The translations under genes and the position numbers were made by a program. Shown piece after piece: positions 26,736 through 36,518 of a stretch of 64,000 nt of DNA (positions within the stretch are counted from its first letter, which is position 1; every line of letters starts with the position of its first letter). A model generated the notes under the pieces. It was given only the letters and a program-made list of their open reading frames with translations. It ran no database searches and had not been told where the DNA came from. This DNA comes from an uncultured Nitrososphaeria archaeon (GTDB taxonomy: Archaea; Thermoproteota; Nitrososphaeria; JACIWG01): NCBI GenBank assembly GCA_964448685.1, contig CAYUWR010000010.1, forward strand, positions 1,144 to 65,143, written 5' to 3'.

Positions 26736-28388
26736 TCACCGCAGAACACATCCTTCACTGGCAGACGTGACACTTCGACTATATCTGAGAAGGAACCTTG
26801 ACTTAGTGGAAGGCCCAGAATAACGCCATCCGCTCCTTCTCCTCTCAAGCTCGTCTGCTTCAACGAGAAGGTCTATCCTCCGTTCAGGCACACTTATCTT
26901 GATCAAGTCTCCCTCCTCCACCAAGGCTATTGGCCCACCTACAGCCGCCTCTGGACATATGTGGCCTACCGCCGGCCCCCGGCTTCCCCCTGAAAACCTA
27001 CCATCCGTTACAAGTGCAACGTCCTTGTCTAGCCCCATTCCCACTATAGTACTTGTGGGACTCAACATTTCACGCATGCCTGGGCCTCCTTTTGGGCCTT
27101 CATATCTGATCACCACGACATCGCCCTTAGCCACCTTCCCATTTGTAATCGCATCATAAGCCTCCTCTTCGCAGTCATACACTTTAGAGCGGCCTTCAAA
27201 AACGTAGTCCTTAGCCTCTAAGGCAGAAGCCTTCATAACGGCACCTTCAGGTGCAAGGGTACCCCTCAAGATCACCACCCCTCCGGTAGGATGAATAGGC
27301 TCATCCAATTCTCTAATGACCTCCTCGTTCGATATCACAGCGTTCTCCACTATCTCGTTGACTTGTTTCCCTGACACAGTCGGCAAGTTCAAATGTAGCC
27401 TACCCTTTATCCTCTTCATGAGAGCCGGGACCCCGCCGCTTGCGTGAAGATCTTCGATCACATATTCACCGCCAGGATATATTGGTGAAATGTGTGGTAT
27501 GATCCGACTTAACCCATCAAAGTCGTCCAATCCTATTTCGACCCCAGCTTCTCTACTGATAGCCATCAGGTGCAATACGGTGTTGGTTGACCCCCCCAAC
27601 GCCATGTCAACCATTATCGCGTTCTCAAAAGCCTTCCTACTCATGAACCTTCGAATATTCTCTCCATCTCGGACCAGCTTCACTATCTGGCATCCCGTCT
27701 TGTAGGCGATCTCCCTCCTTTCCTGACCCATAGACGGCGCAGTTGAAGAGTATGGCAGTGAGATCCCCATCGCTTCACCGAGTATCGCCATTGTGTTGGC
27801 TGTGAACAGGCCACAGCAGGATCCAGGCCCAGGACAAGCCTTCTTCTCGATCTCTACAAGTTCATCGTATCCTATCTTTCCCCTTTCAAATTCGCCTACA
27901 GCCTCGAAGACGTGAATAAGACCTATCTTGTGTCCTCTATAGCGTCCAGCCTCCATCGGCCCGCCTGTCACCAAGATCGAGGGAAGGTCTAGTCTGGCTG
28001 CAGCCATGACCATGCCTGGAGTTATCTTGTCACAGTTAGACAGCAGCACGAGACCGTCGAAGGCGTGCGCTTTGGCCATGATCTCCACAGAGTCCGCGAT
28101 AACCTCCCTTGATGGAAGAGAATACTTCATACCCTCATGCCCCATGGCAATACCATCGTCCACCGCTATCGTGTTAAATTCGAATGGCACACCTCCAGAG
28201 TCAACCACCCCCTTCTTCACATACCCGACGAGCTCGTTCAGGTGAACATGCCCAGCAACAACTTCCGAGTAGCTGTTAGCTATTCCTATGAAGGGTTTGC
28301 TGAAGTCTTCATCCCTTAATCCGACAGCTCTAAAGAGCGAGCGATGCGGCGCCCTACCTGGGCCCTCCTTAACCCTCCTACTTTCCAT
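26736..28388 (-). CDS. ilvD: Dihydroxy-acid dehydratase
   Basis: 550 aa. PFIGIANSYSEVVAGHVHL...SNCDKITPGM...GGSTNTVLHL...ALVTDGRFSGGS. Confidence 0.93.
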   Translation of the reverse strand: MESRRVKEGPGRAPHRSLFRAVGLRDEDFSKPFIGIANSYSEVVAGHVHLNELVGYVKKGVVDSGGVPFEFNTIAVDDGIAMGHEGMKYSLPSREVIADSVEIMAKAHAFDGLVLLSNCDKITPGMVMAAARLDLPSILVTGGPMEAGRYRGHKIGLIHVFEAVGEFERGKIGYDELVEIEKKACPGPGSCCGLFTANTMAILGEAMGISLPYSSTAPSMGQERREIAYKTGCQIVKLVRDGENIRRFMSRKAFENAIMVDMALGGSTNTVLHLMAISREAGVEIGLDDFDGLSRIIPHISPIYPGGEYVIEDLHASGGVPALMKRIKGRLHLNLPTVSGKQVNEIVENAVISNEEVIRELDEPIHPTGGVVILRGTLAPEGAVMKASALEAKDYVFEGRSKVYDCEEEAYDAITNGKVAKGDVVVIRYEGPKGGPGMREMLSPTSTIVGMGLDKDVALVTDGRFSGGSRGPAVGHICPEAAVGGPIALVEEGDLIKISVPERRIDLLVEADELERRRSGWRYSGPSTKSRFLLRYSRSVTSASEGCVLR

Positions 28389-28412
28389 GGTACGGAGAAC
28401 GGCTGACCATTT

Positions 28413-28420
28413 CTATATAA
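28413..28420 (-). promoter_or_regulatory. TATA box (TTATATAG on the minus strand) for ilvD-leuCD
   Basis: Centre lies about 28 nt upstream of ilvD ATG 28388, matching the leaderless spacing seen elsewhere in this window. Confidence 0.5.
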
Positions 28421-28532
28421 GCGTTTGCTGTGAGAGACACTTGGCATAAGCCTTGGAAATGGTTCGAGCAGGCCGCAAAGGTGGCAGATTAGCCTATTTT
28501 GGGGCCGCCTTTGACATCATGGCTCCGATAAG

Positions 28533-28540
28533 TTTATAAA
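28533..28540 (+). promoter_or_regulatory. TATA box (TTTATAAA) driving the ilv leader / ilvBN-ilvC-leuAB operon
   Basis: Centre lies about 29-30 nt upstream of ATG 28566, the same spacing as at 22722/22756 and 28413/28388. Confidence 0.5.
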
Positions 28541-28565
28541 ATGAATTGTGGTTGCTTGATTGCTA

Positions 28566-28646
28566 ATGAAAAGGTCAATCGCACAGTCGACGCAGTCCTC
28601 CAGCACAAGGAGAACAGATATTATTCTCCTTGTACTCATTGTATAA
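28566..28646 (+). CDS. Candidate 26-codon leader peptide MKRSIAQSTQSSSTRRTDIILLVLIV* (last 8 codons all Ile/Leu/Val)
   Basis: My own translation. The ATG sits at the predicted TSS. The final codons are ATT ATT CTC CTT GTA CTC ATT GTA TAA, and the ORF ends 37 nt before ilvB. Too short for the ORF track. Confidence 0.35.
   Translation: MKRSIAQSTQSSSTRRTDIILLVLIV
28605..28633 (+). promoter_or_regulatory. Perfect 10-bp stem hairpin inside the leader ORF (ACAAGGAGAA-N9-TTCTCCTTGT)
   Basis: The 3' arm coincides with the Ile-Ile-Leu-Leu-Val codons of the leader ORF. Confidence 0.4.
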
Positions 28647-28647
28647 G

Positions 28648-28672
28648 CTGCCCTGCTAGATTATAAGGGCAG
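28648..28672 (+). promoter_or_regulatory. 7-bp stem hairpin (CTGCCCT-N11-AGGGCAG) between the leader stop and ilvB ATG
   Basis: Starts 2 nt after the leader TAA and ends 11 nt before ilvB ATG. The loop contains ATTATAA. No oligo-T follows it. Confidence 0.4.
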
Positions 28673-28683
28673 GTGACAAAAAA

Positions 28684-30366
28684 ATGGTTCAGCTCTCCGG
28701 CTCCCATGCTCTCGTTGAAGTCTTGAGGCAAGAGGGAGTCGAGATCTTGTTCGGTTATCCAGGAGGCGCAATCATACCAGTCTACGACGACCTCATGGAC
28801 AGCGGGATAAGACATATCCTTGCAAGACACGAGCAGAGCGCCGCACACATGGCAGACGGGTATGCTAGAGCCTCTGGAAAAGTTGGCGTCGCAATCGCGA
28901 CGTCAGGTCCGGGGGCGACAAATCTTGTTACAGGTATAGCCACAGCCTACCTTGACTCATCTCCAATAGTCGCGATAACAGGCCAAGTTCCAACAAGCCT
29001 CCTTGACACAGACGCATTCCAAGAAGCCGATGTCCCCGCAATATTCAATTCTATCTCAAAGTATGTGTTTCAGCCGAGGTCGCCTACTGAGGTAGCCTAT
29101 AGCGTGAAGGCTGCATTCTATATCGCGTCGACTGGTAGAACAGGCCCAGTTGTAGTTGACATACCGAAAGATGTCCAGACGAGGACAGGAGACGTAGTCT
29201 TTCCAAAGGAGGTGAGGATAAGAGGGTATGTTCCACACATCAGCCCAGACCCTGCATCAGTCAAGAGGGCAGCCAGAACCCTCATGAACGCTGAAAGACC
29301 AGTCATATTGGCAGGCGGCGGAGTCAAAAGAAACAGGGCTGAAGACATCCTCGTGGCAATAGCCGAGCATCTCATGATACCTGTTGTCACGACCTTGATG
29401 GGCAAGGGAGCCTTCCCAGAAGAACACCCCCTATCATTGGGCACTATAGGAATGCATGGCACATATCAAGCCAACACGATCATGGCAGAGGCTGATGTCG
29501 TAGTCGCCTTCGGCACCAGGTTTTCTGATCGATCGACCATGAACACAGCAGAGTTTTCAAACGGGAAGAAGGTGATCCAATTCGACATCGACCCAACCGA
29601 AGTCAGCAAGAACATTGAGCCAACAGACTCCGTCATCGGAGACCTAAAGGCCTCCATGACCATGTTCTATCAGCAGATAAAAGAGAACGCTTGCATGAAA
29701 GAGGATTCTCCTTGGCTGAAGAAGGCGATGGAACTGAGGAGAGAATATGATGACAAGATCTTCGGAAACAACCATAGCAGACTCTCACCCCCAAAGATCA
29801 TCAAGAAGATAAGGGAAATACTACCTCCTGAGGCGATCGTCGCCACCGAGGTTGGACAGAACCAGATGTGGACCCAACTATACTTTAAGGTGAAGAAGCC
29901 TGGCATGTTCATAACAAGCGGAGGCCTGGGAACAATGGGATTCGGCTTCCCAGCAGCAATCGGCGCAAAAGCCGCCAAACCTTCAGTTCCAGTCTTAGAT
30001 GTCGCAGGCGACGGAAGCTTCCAAATGACATGTAACTCTCTAGCCACAAGCGTGTCAGAGAAGCTTCCTGTCATCGTATGCATCCTAAACAACAGCTCAC
30101 TCGGCCTCGTGGCACAATGGCAACGGACATTCTACAATAGAAGATGCTTTGCAACATGGCTTGGGCAGGCACCAGATTTCGTTCAGCTAGCCAAAGCCTA
30201 TGGAGCAGAAGGCTTCAGGGTCCAGAGCCTAGACGAACTAGAGAGGGCGCTGAAGCAGGCACTAGGATATGAGGTTGCAACCGTAATCGACATACCTATT
30301 TCTCCGGAAGAGGATGTCCTACCGTTTGTTCCATCTGGAGGAAGCCTAAAGGATATGCTGGTGTGA
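28684..30366 (+). CDS. ilvB: Acetolactate synthase large (catalytic) subunit
   Basis: 560 aa. GSHALVEVLRQEGVEILFGYPGGAIIPVYD...TSGPGATNLVTG...GLGTMGFGFPAAIGAK...GDGSFQM. Confidence 0.93.
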   Translation: MVQLSGSHALVEVLRQEGVEILFGYPGGAIIPVYDDLMDSGIRHILARHEQSAAHMADGYARASGKVGVAIATSGPGATNLVTGIATAYLDSSPIVAITGQVPTSLLDTDAFQEADVPAIFNSISKYVFQPRSPTEVAYSVKAAFYIASTGRTGPVVVDIPKDVQTRTGDVVFPKEVRIRGYVPHISPDPASVKRAARTLMNAERPVILAGGGVKRNRAEDILVAIAEHLMIPVVTTLMGKGAFPEEHPLSLGTIGMHGTYQANTIMAEADVVVAFGTRFSDRSTMNTAEFSNGKKVIQFDIDPTEVSKNIEPTDSVIGDLKASMTMFYQQIKENACMKEDSPWLKKAMELRREYDDKIFGNNHSRLSPPKIIKKIREILPPEAIVATEVGQNQMWTQLYFKVKKPGMFITSGGLGTMGFGFPAAIGAKAAKPSVPVLDVAGDGSFQMTCNSLATSVSEKLPVIVCILNNSSLGLVAQWQRTFYNRRCFATWLGQAPDFVQLAKAYGAEGFRVQSLDELERALKQALGYEVATVIDIPISPEEDVLPFVPSGGSLKDMLV

Positions 30367-30866
30367 CTATGACTGAAACTGGAAAAGATGGCCTAAAGAC
30401 CGTCTCACTGCTTGTAGAAAACAAGCCAGGTGTACTATTCAGAGTCGTAAGCCACTTCAAGAGGAGAAACTATAACATAGAAAGCATAGCTGTCGGCCCA
30501 ACCGAGGATAAGACAGTCTCCAGAATCGTCATCACAATGGTAGCCGATAGGAGAAGCATGAACTCCTTCGTCAGGCTGCTGAGGAGGACGATAGACGTCC
30601 TAGAGGTCAAGACAGTCGAAGAAGACGAGGTCGTAGCCCGCGAGCTCGCACTCGTCAAAATATCGGCAAGAGACCGAGACGCCAGAGAACAGGCCATCGC
30701 ATACGCAAAGTCCAGAGGGGCAAAGGTGGCTGAAGTAACAGAGACCACAGTCGTCCTAGAGGTTTCAGACACCTTTGAGAGGGTAGAAGACTTTATAAAT
30801 TCAGCTTCAGGGTTTAATGTGAGTGGAATTTCGAGAACAGGTGTAACCGTGATTGAGAAACAGTAG
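30363..30866 (+). CDS. ilvN: Acetolactate synthase small (regulatory) subunit
   Basis: 167 aa. ACT domain VSLLVENKPGVLFRVVSHFKRRNYNIESIAVGPTED. Overlaps the ilvB stop. Confidence 0.88.
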   Translation: MTMTETGKDGLKTVSLLVENKPGVLFRVVSHFKRRNYNIESIAVGPTEDKTVSRIVITMVADRRSMNSFVRLLRRTIDVLEVKTVEEDEVVARELALVKISARDRDAREQAIAYAKSRGAKVAEVTETTVVLEVSDTFERVEDFINSASGFNVSGISRTGVTVIEKQ

Positions 30867-30880
30867 ATATCCATCAGGGG

Positions 30881-31876
30881 ATGAAGATGGCGAAAATATA
30901 CTATGATTCAGACACAAGCCTAAGTCCGCTGCATGAGAAGAAGGTTGCAATAATAGGCTACGGCAGCCAGGGAAGAGCTCACGCGTTAAACCTACGCGAT
31001 TCCGGAATAGACGTTACCGTAGGCTTGAGAAGGGGGGGAGCTAGCTGGAATAAGGCAGGCGAAGACGGCTTCAAGCCAGAGGAAGTCGACAACGCCTCCC
31101 ACGAAGCCGACATTATAATGATCTTAACCCCGGACACAACACACAACACCCTCTACATGACATCGATCAAGGACAACTTGAAGGCTGGAAAGGCACTGGG
31201 CTTCGCCCACGGCTACGCCATAAGATTCGGGCTCATCAAGCCACCCAAGTACGTGGACGTGTTCATGGTAGCTCCAAAGGGGCCAGGCGCCAAGGTGAGA
31301 GAAACCTTCTTGAACAAGTTTGGGGTGCCTGCCCTGATAGCCGTTGAACAGAACTACAGTGGAAAGGCAAAGGAGCTGGCTCTAGCATATGCGAAAGCGC
31401 TCGGCGCAACCAGAGCAGGAGTCCTAGAGACCACCTTCGCAGAGGAGACAGAATCAGACCTATTAGGCGAACAGGCTGTCCTATGCGGCGGCGTAGTAAG
31501 CCTAATAGAAAAAGGCTACGAGGTTCTAACAGAAGCCGGATACCAACCTGAACTGGCCTACTTCGAAGTATGCAACGAACTCAAACTCATAGTTGACCTA
31601 ATATATGAGAAGGGGCTTAAAGGCATGCTGACGTCCGTCAGCGACACAGCAAAATACGGCTGTCTGACAAAAGGATATGAAATCGTTGACGATCACGTAA
31701 AACAGAACATGAAGAAAGCCCTTGAAGAGATCAGGAACGGAAAGTTTGCAGAAAGATGGACAGGCAGCATGCCATCAAGCACCAGACAGCTTGCAGAAAT
31801 GATGGCCAAATTGGATGAAAAAGAGATAGAGAAGGTAGGACGCCAGATAAGGAGACTCGCTGGGATAGAAAGATGA
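30881..31876 (+). CDS. ilvC: Ketol-acid reductoisomerase
   Basis: 331 aa. KVAIIGYGSQGRAHALNLRDSG...GFAHGYAIRFG...LLGEQAVLCGG. Confidence 0.93.
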   Translation: MKMAKIYYDSDTSLSPLHEKKVAIIGYGSQGRAHALNLRDSGIDVTVGLRRGGASWNKAGEDGFKPEEVDNASHEADIIMILTPDTTHNTLYMTSIKDNLKAGKALGFAHGYAIRFGLIKPPKYVDVFMVAPKGPGAKVRETFLNKFGVPALIAVEQNYSGKAKELALAYAKALGATRAGVLETTFAEETESDLLGEQAVLCGGVVSLIEKGYEVLTEAGYQPELAYFEVCNELKLIVDLIYEKGLKGMLTSVSDTAKYGCLTKGYEIVDDHVKQNMKKALEEIRNGKFAERWTGSMPSSTRQLAEMMAKLDEKEIEKVGRQIRRLAGIER

Positions 31877-33378
31877 ACGAACGTGTATACGTCTTCGACA
31901 CAACCCTCAGAGATGGTGAACAGACACCTGAAGTCAGCCTGACAGCAGACGACAAGCTTCAGATCGCCATCCAGTTAGACCGGCTCGGAGTCGACGTCAT
32001 AGAAGCAGGATTCCCCATCAGCAGCGAAGGCGAATATCAGGCGATAAAGAAGATAACACAGCAGAAGCTTAATGCGAAGATATGTGCACTAGCCAGAGCA
32101 GTAAAGAGCGACATGGACAGAGCCTTAGACTCAGACGTCGACAGAGTACACGTTTTCATAGCCACATCAGACATCCACCTAAAGCATAAACTGAAGATGA
32201 CCAGAGAGCAGGCCTATCAGAAGGCTGTCGAAGCCGTCGAATACCTCAGAGGCCACGGCGTAGAAGTTGAATTCTCCGCAGAAGATGCGACGAGAACAGA
32301 CATCGACTTCCTGAAAAGGGTTTACGAGGGAGCCTCCAAGGCAGGAGCAGACTACCTCGACATAGCGGACACGGTGGGTATAGCCCGCCCAGACACGATG
32401 ACAAAGCTGGTGGAGGCAGTCAAGAGCGTTTCAGCCAAGTCGATAGTGAGCGTCCACTGCCACAACGACTTCGGCCTCGCAGCGTCAAACACTATAGCGG
32501 GAGTCGTCGCGGGCGCAAGACAGTTCCACGCGACCGTAAACGGAATAGGAGAGAGAGCCGGAAACGCCAGCCTAGAAGAGGTTGCGATGGCCCTAGACAT
32601 CCTCTACGGCTACAAGCTCAAAATCAACAAGAAGCTGATATATCAGACGAGCCGTCTCGTCTCAAGGCTGACAGGACTCTATGTCCAACCAAACAAGGCG
32701 ATCGTAGGAGACAACGCATTTGGACATGGAGCAGGGATACATACCCATGGCGTAATAGAGGAGCCCTCAACATATGAGTCGATCAAACCCGAAATGGTCG
32801 GAAAGAAGAGGTGGCTAACAGCCGGAAAATATGCAGGATCACATGGCATAAGGGCACAACTGGAAGCTCTCGGCATAAAGCCGAAGGAAGAGCAGCTCAA
32901 GACGATCGTCCTAAAGGTGAAGGAGCTTGGAGACAGGGGAAAGCTGGTGACAGACAGCGACCTCGCAGCCATAGCAAATTCTGTACTCGGCCAAGTGAGT
33001 GCAGAAGAGAGGGCTCTAAGCTTAGAAGAGTTCATAGTGGTCACAGGACACAAGGTGATGCCGACCGCTTCGATCAAGGTAAGATTTGATGGAAAAGAGT
33101 ATGCCGCCTCCCAGATGGGAGTCGGGCCAGTAGACGCCGCGATGAAGGCGATCCAAGAAGTCCTCAAAGACACGTTAAAGGTGAGCCTAAAAGAGTATAG
33201 AATCGAGGCCGTGACAGGAGGCTCCGACGCCCTCGCCGAAGTCACAGTCAGAGTCGAGGACGCAAACAACCTTCAAGCTTCAGCGAGGACAGCTGGCTCA
33301 GACATCGTCCAGACGAGCGTGGAAGCAATGCTGGAAGGCATCAACAAGCTACTCCTCAAGAGAAAGTATCAGAGATGA
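31873..33378 (+). CDS. leuA: 2-isopropylmalate synthase (a citramalate synthase of the same family cannot be excluded)
   Basis: 501 aa. VFDTTLRDGEQTPEV...HCHNDFGLAASNTIAGV...; C-terminal LeuA-dimer-like regulatory domain. Confidence 0.85.
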   Translation: MNERVYVFDTTLRDGEQTPEVSLTADDKLQIAIQLDRLGVDVIEAGFPISSEGEYQAIKKITQQKLNAKICALARAVKSDMDRALDSDVDRVHVFIATSDIHLKHKLKMTREQAYQKAVEAVEYLRGHGVEVEFSAEDATRTDIDFLKRVYEGASKAGADYLDIADTVGIARPDTMTKLVEAVKSVSAKSIVSVHCHNDFGLAASNTIAGVVAGARQFHATVNGIGERAGNASLEEVAMALDILYGYKLKINKKLIYQTSRLVSRLTGLYVQPNKAIVGDNAFGHGAGIHTHGVIEEPSTYESIKPEMVGKKRWLTAGKYAGSHGIRAQLEALGIKPKEEQLKTIVLKVKELGDRGKLVTDSDLAAIANSVLGQVSAEERALSLEEFIVVTGHKVMPTASIKVRFDGKEYAASQMGVGPVDAAMKAIQEVLKDTLKVSLKEYRIEAVTGGSDALAEVTVRVEDANNLQASARTAGSDIVQTSVEAMLEGINKLLLKRKYQR

Positions 33379-34394
33379 AGTACAACATAGCTTGGGTGCA
33401 TGGAGACGGCATAGGACCAGAAATATCGAAGGCAGCATTGAAGATTCTGGACACTCTAAGGGAAAAACGTGCACTCGACCTAAAAATATCCTTCTACCAT
33501 GCCGGAGACCACTGCAAAAGCAGCTTCGGCGTCCCATTACCAGATGCAACCATCGATGGAATAAGGCAGGCTGACGCGACTGTGAAAGAGCCTGTAGGCG
33601 AAAGCGCCGCAGACGTGATAGTCAGACTCCGCAGAATGCTCGACCTATACGCGAACATAAGGCCAGCCAAAAACTATGAGAAGCACCCATACTTTAACGA
33701 CATCGACCTCATAATAGTCAGAGAGAATACAGAAGACCTATACAGCGGCATAGAATTCGACATAGACAGTGGAGCAGTCGCTCTGAGGATAATAACAGAG
33801 AAGGCTTCACTGCGGATTGCAGAGGTAGCGGCGAAGCTGGCTCTTTCAAGAAGAAGAAAGGTTACAATCGTCCACAAAGCTAACGTGATGAAGAAGACCT
33901 GTGGACTGTTCGCGAAAACCGTCAAAGAGAAGCTGGCAGAATATCCTGAACTCACAGTAGACGAGATGTATGTGGATGCTGCAAGCATGGCGCTGATAAG
34001 AAGACCTGAATCATTTGACATAATAGCCACCACAAACCTCTTCGGAGACATATTGAGTGACGAAGCTGCCCAGGTAGCCGGAGGCCTTGGGATGGCTGCA
34101 TCCGCAAACATAGGCACATCGATGGCAATATTTGAGCCAGTACACGGCTCAGCACCCGACATAGCAGGCAAGGAAATCGCAAACCCATATTCAATGATAC
34201 TATCGTGCAAGATGATGCTTGACTGGCTACATAGCCGAAACGGCGACAGAAGGCTTTCAGAGGCAGCTCAAGACATAGAGCAGGCCTGCATAAGAGGCCT
34301 ACAGATGAACGTGAAGACCCCAGACATAGGGGGAGAACTTAAGACCCAGCAGGTAGCCGAAAAGCTATGTGATCTCATATCTGAGACAGCTTGA
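33375..34394 (+). CDS. leuB: 3-isopropylmalate dehydrogenase
   Basis: 339 aa. HGDGIGPE...LYANIRP...VRENTEDLYSG...NLFGDILSDEAAQVAGGLG. Sits within the leu operon. Confidence 0.88.
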   Translation: MKYNIAWVHGDGIGPEISKAALKILDTLREKRALDLKISFYHAGDHCKSSFGVPLPDATIDGIRQADATVKEPVGESAADVIVRLRRMLDLYANIRPAKNYEKHPYFNDIDLIIVRENTEDLYSGIEFDIDSGAVALRIITEKASLRIAEVAAKLALSRRRKVTIVHKANVMKKTCGLFAKTVKEKLAEYPELTVDEMYVDAASMALIRRPESFDIIATTNLFGDILSDEAAQVAGGLGMAASANIGTSMAIFEPVHGSAPDIAGKEIANPYSMILSCKMMLDWLHSRNGDRRLSEAAQDIEQACIRGLQMNVKTPDIGGELKTQQVAEKLCDLISETA

Positions 34395-36427: not shown

Positions 36428-36466
36428 GATCACCTCTTTCGAGAGCATGTTTTCTCGGAGGTGATC
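36428..36466 (-). promoter_or_regulatory. SD-sequestering hairpin in the rtcB 5' UTR (GAUCACCUC...GAGGUGAUC, 9+5 bp)
   Basis: On the mRNA: 5'-GAUCACCUC CGAGA AAACAUGC UCUCG AAA GAGGUGAUC-3', followed by CAAG AUG. The upstream arm equals the 16S rRNA 3'-tail sequence. Confidence 0.5.
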
Positions 36467-36471
36467 TCCAT
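36430..36471 (-). other. Possible 13-codon uORF (MEITSEKTCSRKR*) spanning the rtcB hairpin
   Basis: ATG 36471 is preceded by GGAGGAAA. Its TGA stop lies inside the rtcB SD (GAGGUGAUC), 6 nt before the rtcB ATG. My own translation; speculative. Confidence 0.25.
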
Positions 36472-36518
36472 TTTCCTCCAAGAAGAATTTTGTTCACTAA
36501 CAGATTGTAGGCTCATGG

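Follow-up and report, generated by a model that had tools for sequence, protein, structure and literature searches.

Among the textbook regulatory mechanisms of bacteria is control by leader peptides acting through the ribosome. In the classical attenuators, a leader with its own Shine–Dalgarno (SD) sequence carries the regulatory codons in the middle of its open reading frame (ORF), and mutually exclusive antiterminator and terminator hairpins are followed by a U-run. Here we analyze a 64,000-nucleotide stretch of DNA from an uncultured Nitrososphaeria archaeon (hereafter the window), in which a short ORF precedes ilvB. The ORF comprises 26 codons and a stop codon (28566..28646, + strand) and encodes MKRSIAQSTQSSSTRRTDIILLVLIV. 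Its final eight codons (28620..28643, + strand) are ATT ATT CTC CTT GTA CTC ATT GTA, an uninterrupted run of Ile/Leu/Val (ILV) codons whose last three specify Leu, Ile, and Val and which we regard as the candidate regulatory codons. From the sequence and its relatives, we conclude that this ORF is a strong candidate for a bacterial-style leader-peptide amino acid sensor in an archaeon, and we judge it probable that it would sense ILV supply and act by ribosome occlusion ahead of ilvBN-ilvC-leuAB.

The closest analogues of this arrangement are the leaderless poly-Cys short ORFs of mycobacteria and the ilvB leaders of actinobacteria. The mycobacterial ORFs (Ms5788A type) work through ribosomes that stall and so keep RNA structure from sequestering the ribosome-binding site downstream (Canestrari et al., bioRxiv 10.1101/834739). 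The archaeal leader resembles them as a predicted leaderless short first cistron with a codon run for the end product of the downstream operon, in an arrangement that requires no terminator. The mycobacterial system differs in that it is bacterial, Cys-sensing, and experimentally demonstrated, while the archaeal leader has a TATA box and candidate B recognition element (BRE) as its promoter, a codon run at the extreme C-terminus abutting the stop codon, and SD sequestration that is partial and lacks statistical support. The actinobacterial leaders (Corynebacterium, Mycobacterium, and Streptomyces ilvBNC; PMC1262725, PMC10272879, PMC11857589) likewise place a short ORF with Ile/Val/Leu codon runs upstream of ilvB, overlapping a hairpin, and the Corynebacterium leader is reported, in the title of Morbach 2000, to be translated without a ribosome-binding site. 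Their hairpins are followed by poly-U runs and are candidate intrinsic terminators, whereas the window leader has none, and it shares no sequence or Rfam relationship with them.

Two further groups are informative. Like the enterobacterial ilvGMEDA, ilvBN, and leu attenuators (Rfam Leu_leader type), the window leader is rich in end-product codons, and its candidate regulatory codons lie in a helix; unlike the classical attenuators, it has no terminator, no evident alternative pairing, C-terminal rather than internal codons, and no Rfam match. In the ermC and cat leaders, as summarised in 10.1101/834739, the SD of the downstream gene is occluded by a hairpin, which is remodeled when a ribosome stalls in a short ORF ahead of it. 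The same stalled-ribosome and SD-hairpin logic is what we propose for the archaeal leader, with the difference that stalling in ermC and cat depends on a drug and the nascent peptide rather than on limitation of aminoacyl-tRNA. By function, the archaeal ORF would work like a leader-peptide sensor lacking the terminator that defines classical attenuators, and the translational attenuation class fits it only in part, since occlusion of its SD is weakly supported.

The earlier note on this DNA, made from its letters alone, had proposed a TATA box, the 26-codon ORF with its eight ILV codons, and two hairpins, and a direct reading of the sequence places all of them at the coordinates it gave. Runs of at least eight Ile, Leu, or Val codons occur only twice in the six frames of the window, and five of the eight codons in the leader are the rarest synonym for Ile (ATT, 15%) or Val (GTA, 16%) in a sample of 21 genes from this genome. 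The TATA box TTTATAAA lies at 28533..28540, and a 25-nt gap separates it from the leader ATG at 28566. This spacing predicts a transcription start at 28562..28566 (+ strand), which would make the ORF leaderless or nearly so. Directly upstream of the TATA box is the octamer CCGATAAG, and the combined CCGATAAG-TTTATAAA block (28525..28540, + strand), a BRE-like element plus TATA box for the leader transcript, occurs only once in the window. The operon downstream, which had been assigned as ilvBN-ilvC-leuA-leuB, is borne out by Pfam domains and extends over 28684..34394 on the + strand: ilvB (28684-30366, ATG at 28684), ilvN (30363-30866), ilvC (30881-31876), leuA (31873-33378), and leuB (33375-34394). 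The same gene order, ilvB-ilvN-ilvC-leuA-leuB, is found in relatives.

One feature had been misread. ilvB had been described as lacking an SD, which is wrong: the sequence contains AGGTGA at 28671..28676 (+ strand), 7 nt before the ilvB ATG. In a rough gene map of the window, genes that open a transcription unit lack an SD and are preceded by a TATA-like box at ~24-38 nt; operon-internal genes have GGAGG or GGTGA at -10 to -17, and ilvB has AGGTG at -13. Because it carries an SD, ilvB looks like an internal cistron, which strengthens rather than weakens the case for a leader. The SD therefore fits a transcript in which the short ORF would be the leaderless first cistron. Two competing readings of this region were rejected. 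A 41-codon ORF at 28541-28666 begins with an ATG directly after the TATA box, upstream of any start site, and is missing in L169, a relative with 85% IlvB identity. The ATTATAA at 28661-67, considered as a promoter for ilvB, is 17 nt from the ilvB ATG, which is too close, and is not conserved in L169 or L170.

To follow the leader through its own lineage, we compared the upstream DNA of nine IlvB relatives with 63-85% identity (loci L169 to L177); the relatives at 85% and 77% are metagenome-assembled genomes (MAGs) of Nitrososphaeria archaea. A search for short ORFs with ILV tails before ilvB of related archaea had been suggested earlier, and it returned a short upstream ORF with an ILV-rich C-terminus in 9/9 relatives. 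Read up to the stop codon, the leader peptides are MERSTISSTSSTNTRRSVLILLVLIV (L169, IlvB 85%), MEQLEASSKLVSIIRRLNVILLIIV (L170, 77%), MSDLEVQENAYFDSVGLFVVQLELLL (L177, 71%), MHRVYHQKRSVLGVRGLLVVLLNLII (L173, 69%), MDRLRAPNIILISLLIVLPLVLLL (L174, 69%), LDKRLSSTKLLNIDIPVVPLLVLLL (L175, 69%, with a TTG start), MNNKGIRLNRNVLVLVPLVLLL (L171, 68%), MKNKSQSRKWLSGRRVSADTPLLVVSSIL (L172, 65%), and MSNNAAKAFIECVRTLVILPLILNV (L176, 63%); the ORFs of L169, L170, L173, and L177 are orthologous to that of the window. Proteins encoded in the window were also matched on a few metagenome and MAG contigs. Contigs from the IlvD cluster belong to the same species as the window, with 98.5% identity throughout and no special conservation of the spacer, and they carry no covariation information.

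The manner in which these leaders diverge is instructive. Of the tail positions, 62-100% stay within the ILV class, whereas identity is only 6-56% in the N-terminal part of the peptide and, for the more distant pairs, drops to 25-50% within the tail itself. Such divergence points to selection on the class of codon and not on the peptide. The elements on either side of the ORF are kept as well. The alignable set shows no variation in the promoter block CCGATAAGTTTATAAA and keeps the 25 nt that separate it from the ATG; CCGATAAG-TTTATAAA does not vary among the window with its strains, L169, L170, and L173, and is present in L171 and L175, with variants in L174 (CGATAACTTTATAAA) and L176 (CAATAACTTTATTAA) and too little upstream sequence in L177. 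A clear hairpin starts -3 to +4 nt from the leader stop codon in 8/9 relatives (L177 is less clear), and an SD of the form GGTGA or GGAGGTG precedes ilvB in the relatives with enough sequence, L177 having only GTGTGA. We additionally observed that the octamer CCGATAAG is invariant down to 68% IlvB identity while the remaining spacer diverges, and that the ilvD TATA box is preceded by a different sequence; the octamer may serve as a BRE or as a binding site peculiar to the leader promoter.

We then extended the comparison to a broad sample of ilvB loci from genome and metagenome pattern scans with IlvB, in which the matches listed reached at most 59% identity and came from Bathyarchaeia, Nitrososphaerales, and others. 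A locus was scored positive if it had an ATG-started ORF of 8-60 codons with ≥6 ILV in the last 10 codons. Positives numbered 27 among the 153 ilvB loci with enough upstream DNA, compared with 2 on the reverse complement, and 25 of 155 loci when set against 2 on the reverse strand and 2.2 ± 1.6 (maximum 7) in dinucleotide shuffles. At a threshold of ≥7 ILV in 10, 18 of the 155 loci remained, with 0 on the reverse strand and 0.3 ± 0.6 in shuffles. The central claim of the earlier note, a translation-sensing leader built on ILV codons, thus gains strong support from both samples: 9/9 relatives, and 25/155 ilvB loci where about 2 are expected.

The positives represent about a dozen mutually non-alignable leader types. 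They include a Nitrososphaera type (MP....H.VHVLVLL.LA-stop), a Nitrosopumilaceae type (MSTT...GVLLLVDLVL-stop), and several Bathyarchaeia types (...DVVVIII-stop, ...GLVIVVLLV-stop, and ...IVLLLVLVVILQ-stop), together with ILV-tailed leaders in a DHVE2 archaeon (L048), in an Archaeoglobaceae MAG (L075, ...VAIIVVH-stop), and on two metagenome contigs of unknown affiliation (L061 and L154). Loci titled as bacteria gave a single weak positive, although metagenome loci carry no taxonomy. In 30 leaders studied in detail, the last ten codons are 77% Leu, Val, or Ile, with 1 Phe in 300 residues and 0 Met and 0 Trp; the final ILV codon is 0-1 codons from the stop codon in 30/30, with a hairpin beginning at -3 to +8 nt relative to that stop. 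Common to all lineages are a short first cistron, a C-terminal ILV run, a hairpin abutting the stop codon, and an ilvB led by an SD.

The leader of the window contains two hairpins. Stem 1 (28602..28636, + strand) is a perfect 10-bp helix between ACAAGGAGAA (28605-14) and TTCTCCTTGT (28624-33), the latter lying within the ILV codons, and on its own it has a folding free energy (dG) of -12.5 kcal/mol with z = -5.0 against shuffles. Stem 2 in its extended form (28639..28681, + strand) has a 7-bp core (28648-54 with 28666-72) plus the pairs 28639-42:28676-79 and 28646:28674, with a dG of -14.4 kcal/mol and z = -2.3 against shuffles. Its 3′ arm overlaps the ilvB SD: the extension brings the final Ile and Val codons, together with the stop, into pairing with the spacer and part of the SD. 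Both stems were recovered independently by a repeat finder (inverted repeats I1 and I2), and the central strands of both are pyrimidine-rich. The z-scores hold up in L169 and L170 (-5.0, -4.8, and -3.5 for stem 1 and -2.3, -2.1, and -2.9 for extended stem 2 in the window, L169, and L170, respectively), and both stems survive in L169, L170, and L173. Across an alignment of five sequences, 84% of cells are paired in stem 1, with 2 pairs changed on both sides, and 86% in the core of stem 2, with 3 such pairs; overall pairing of the stems is 71%, compared with 43-57% in slid controls. The whole 139-nt leader is no more stable than its shuffles (z = -0.47), and only the single hairpins are significant. 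Folding of the leader, a check proposed earlier, showed stems 1 and 2 in minimum-free-energy, centroid, and ribosome-masked folds but gave no convincing alternative pairing between them. Rfam had no match at gathering thresholds in the 64 kb window, and a permissive scan of the leader (E ≤ 10) yielded snoU25 as its sole match, with E = 0.79, which is at chance level.

In other lineages, the ILV codons pair with different partners. In nine Nitrososphaera-type leaders (alignment A3: L007, L099, L009, L011, L110, L014, L016, L020, and L006), the ILV codons GGUUCUGCUG pair with a post-stop segment CAGCAAGC in 93% of cells, compared with 31-43% in slid controls, and 7 cells are changed on both sides, compared with 3.0 ± 1.5 in shuffles. 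We conclude that, as far as can be read from these predicted pairings, every lineage has its ILV codons in one strand of a conserved helix, with a partner that varies by lineage. Several smaller observations concern the same helices. As read from L014, at least some Nitrososphaera-type leaders have a local hairpin after the stop codon, and its loop contains the segment to which the ILV codons pair; both structures together would form a pseudoknot. In several members, a small TTGCC/GGCAA stem carries the stop codon in its loop. In four relatives of the window (L171, L174, L175, and L176), the ILV codons pair with a GGGGCAG near the leader start. In L174, where 1369-1381 pairs with 1426-1437, GGGGCAG(AACG) meets CGTTCTGCCCC (Val-Leu-Pro codons) inside the ILV tail, in a duplex of at least 11 bp that encloses nearly the whole ORF. 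A Pro codon is conserved inside the ILV run of these four leaders because of this helix, and the region of the leader start would be sequestered by it once the tail has been transcribed.

Taken together, these features suggest the following mechanism. Transcription would start ~25 nt after the TATA box, and ribosomes would begin at the 5′-terminal AUG. When charged Ile-, Leu-, or Val-tRNA is scarce, ribosomes would dwell on the eight terminal ILV codons. From the geometry, a ribosome on the last of these codons would cover ~12 nt downstream, which is the 5′ strand of the hairpin beginning 1-2 nt past the stop codon, and would thus block that hairpin; the ~12-nt downstream footprint is an assumption taken from bacterial toeprints. 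In the window lineage, the 3′ strand of the hairpin reaches the ilvB SD, and its opening would relieve occlusion of the SD and let ilvB be initiated more often, in the manner of translational attenuation. With ample ILV, the ribosome would terminate and leave, the hairpin would re-form, and ilvB initiation would be damped. In lineages that have a T-run after the hairpin, the same sensor may govern transcription termination.

The step in this scheme that we hold least firmly is the output. The earlier note had favored a translational output over a terminator and had reported no oligo-T after either hairpin. The latter is borne out, as there is no terminator-like site in 28300-28800 and no T-run after either hairpin, stem 2 being followed by GTGACAAAAAAA. 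Because stem 2 overlaps the SD and no T-run follows, the output in the window lineage is probably translational, though this is weakly supported: the preference is reasonable for this lineage, but SD sequestration is not above shuffled controls.

Several further observations weigh against the proposed mechanism or temper it. The core of stem 2 covers 2/6 SD bases, and the extended form 4/6, pairing them with the last codons, the stop codon, and the first 8 nt beyond it. Pairing of the SD with the segment that a ribosome would cover scores 0.43 in the window, compared with 0.37 in composition-matched shuffles; over 24 leaders, the mean is 0.32, compared with 0.22 when shuffled (Wilcoxon p = 0.13), and such pairing is essentially missing in most Nitrososphaera-type leaders. 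Because family-wide SD sequestration is not significant, we do not claim SD masking as a universal output. Folding with the ribosome footprint masked gave no clean gain in SD accessibility in the window, and a clearer one only for L170. The mechanism does not account for stem 1, whose role may be to shut off leader re-initiation after the first ribosome, or timing. The covariation comes from 5 and 9 sequences only. The 30 detailed leaders were picked by ILV content, which makes their composition and geometry figures partly circular; the shuffle and strand controls are free of this circularity. Finally, in the Streptomyces coelicolor ilvB leader, substitution of the candidate regulatory codons left regulation unaffected (PMC1262725).

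The main rival retains the ILV-sensing ORF and has it act on transcription: the post-stop hairpin would promote termination or 3′-end cleavage, either intrinsically or via aCPSF1/FttA, and a held ribosome would prevent it. U-rich tracts underlie archaeal termination, and T-runs do follow the equivalent hairpin in L175 (T6), L176 (TTTGTTTGT), L154 (T7), L075 (TTTTATTTTT), and L048 (T6). In L075, L048, and L154 the oligo-T tract stands directly before the ilvB SD, the L154 tract being ~23 nt before ilvB, an arrangement that suggests a termination-based version of the same sensor in these three. The Nitrososphaera-type hairpin, moreover, makes no contact with the SD and needs an output other than SD masking. 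For the window itself, we nevertheless regard a transcriptional output as unlikely: no T-run follows the hairpin in the window, L169, L170, or L172, with an A-run in its place in the window and L170, and to our knowledge a dependence of archaeal termination on hairpins is not established.

A second alternative, to which we give a little less credence, is that the ORF is a constitutive leaderless entry cistron that feeds ilvB by coupling or reinitiation. Its ILV tail would then be the by-product of a pyrimidine-rich arm that pairs with purine-rich partners such as the AAGGAGA arm and the SD. This accommodates the invariable presence of the ILV codons in a conserved helix, the indifference of the S. 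coelicolor leader to codon substitution, and our finding that shuffled pyrimidine-rich segments pair with the SD about equally well. It accounts poorly for the composition of the tails, since Phe, Ser, and Pro should be as frequent as Leu, Val, or Ile if a pyrimidine-rich arm were translated in an arbitrary frame, whereas these three residues are nearly missing and Phe occurs once in 300 residues. Nor does it predict that frame, ATG, and stop position are kept in about a dozen unrelated leaders whose helix partners differ, lying upstream in the window lineage and downstream in Nitrososphaera. The association is also specific to the ILV pathway gene: no leader ORF of like kind was found before the other operons in the window, where SD-led genes after long gaps follow ordinary small genes.

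We consider it very improbable that chance, or a generic structured 5′ untranslated region, explains the ORF and its hairpins, with control exerted only by a DNA-binding regulator at the 295-nt region shared with the divergent ilvD operon. An inverted repeat in that region (28476-85 / 28504-13) and the invariant CCGATAAG could be protein-binding sites, and the whole leader, as noted, folds no better than shuffles; yet each hairpin is individually significant, ILV-tailed ORFs are enriched more than 10-fold over shuffles and the reverse strand and recur in 9/9 relatives, and a protein regulator would in any case be compatible with a leader mechanism. Least credible of all is a functional hydrophobic micropeptide (membrane-associated or enzyme-binding) rather than a cis-acting sensor, for although the presence of the ORF is conserved and its C-terminus is hydrophobic, the peptide sequence is not conserved beyond the ILV class and the ORF keeps a fixed position with respect to ilvB and the hairpin, and the membrane version is ruled out on length and composition by a run of 8-10 residues that is too short to span a membrane and consists of Leu, Val, and Ile only, without the Phe, Ala, Gly, and Met typical of membrane segments.

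Returning to the ILV-sensing leader, the breadth of the sample leads us to think it rather likely, if with slightly less assurance than for the window locus itself, that a widespread archaeal class of such ORFs exists in thermophilic and ammonia-oxidising Nitrososphaeria, Bathyarchaeia, and some Euryarchaeota. In this putative class, a leaderless or short-leader ORF would end in an ILV run abutting a hairpin, and ribosome dwell there would set expression of the branched-chain amino acid (BCAA) operon. The class would have arisen repeatedly, with differing helix partners and differing outputs (SD masking or T-run termination), on a eukaryote-like transcription machinery with no bacterial-type terminator.

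The principle is familiar; what is new is the domain of life, the machinery, and the architecture, namely a codon run at the C-terminus directly next to a hairpin, a design that would have arisen repeatedly and independently. A search of the accessible full-text literature, which leaves most subscription-journal papers outside its reach, found no amino-acid-sensing leader peptide from archaea, and within that literature the earlier statement that leader-peptide control is not established in archaea agrees with our finding no archaeal precedent. Archaeal ribosome-profiling papers describe small ORFs in 5′ untranslated regions only as "reminiscent" of leader peptides (PMC10117724) or as possible upstream ORFs. 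If the sensor is real, translation-based amino acid sensing would extend to archaea, with TATA/BRE promoters, leaderless initiation, and no hairpin-dependent terminator, and would provide a cis-regulatory handle on amino acid metabolism in the ecologically dominant ammonia-oxidising archaea and in Bathyarchaeia. The question of archaeal attenuation would become directly testable, because the Nitrososphaera- and Nitrosopumilus-type leaders occur in lineages with cultured members. The architecture also supplies a search rule for more archaeal sensors: a short first cistron that ends in a run of cognate codons directly next to a hairpin.

The remaining observations concern the surroundings of the leader. 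Divergent from it, on the - strand (26736..28420), are ilvD (26736-28388) and then leuC, assigned by Pfam, and the spacer between the ilvD-leuC and ilvB operons is 295 nt. ilvD has its TATA box TTATATAG at 28413-28420, 24 nt before its ATG and thus at a spacing similar to the 25 nt of the leader; it has no SD, a leaderless start, and no leader ORF. Between the ilvD and leader promoters, ~20-55 nt upstream of the leader TATA box, lies the inverted repeat mentioned above, composed of CAAAGGTGGC (28476-28485) and GCCGCCTTTG (28504-28513). Its 10-nt arms are 90% complementary and 18 nt apart, and it could serve as an operator through which a DNA-binding protein regulates both BCAA operons. At a similar position in L169, inspection by eye shows another inverted repeat (GGCTCAA ... 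TTGAGCC). The 9-mer AAATGGTTC that spans the ilvB start codon (28682-28690) recurs exactly 225 nt upstream, at 28457-28465 in the inter-promoter region, and its complement, GAAATGGT / ACCATTTC, together with 28406-13 near the ilvD TATA box, makes up an inverted repeat of 8 nt; all of this may be chance. Elsewhere in the window, a 28-codon ATG ORF encoding MSLQSVSEQNSSWRKMEITSEKTCSRKR (36430-36516, - strand), which shows no amino acid bias, has TATA-like motifs 17-37 nt upstream and ends 6 nt before rtcB; rtcB has its own GAGGT SD, and the ORF is another possible short first cistron before an SD-led gene.

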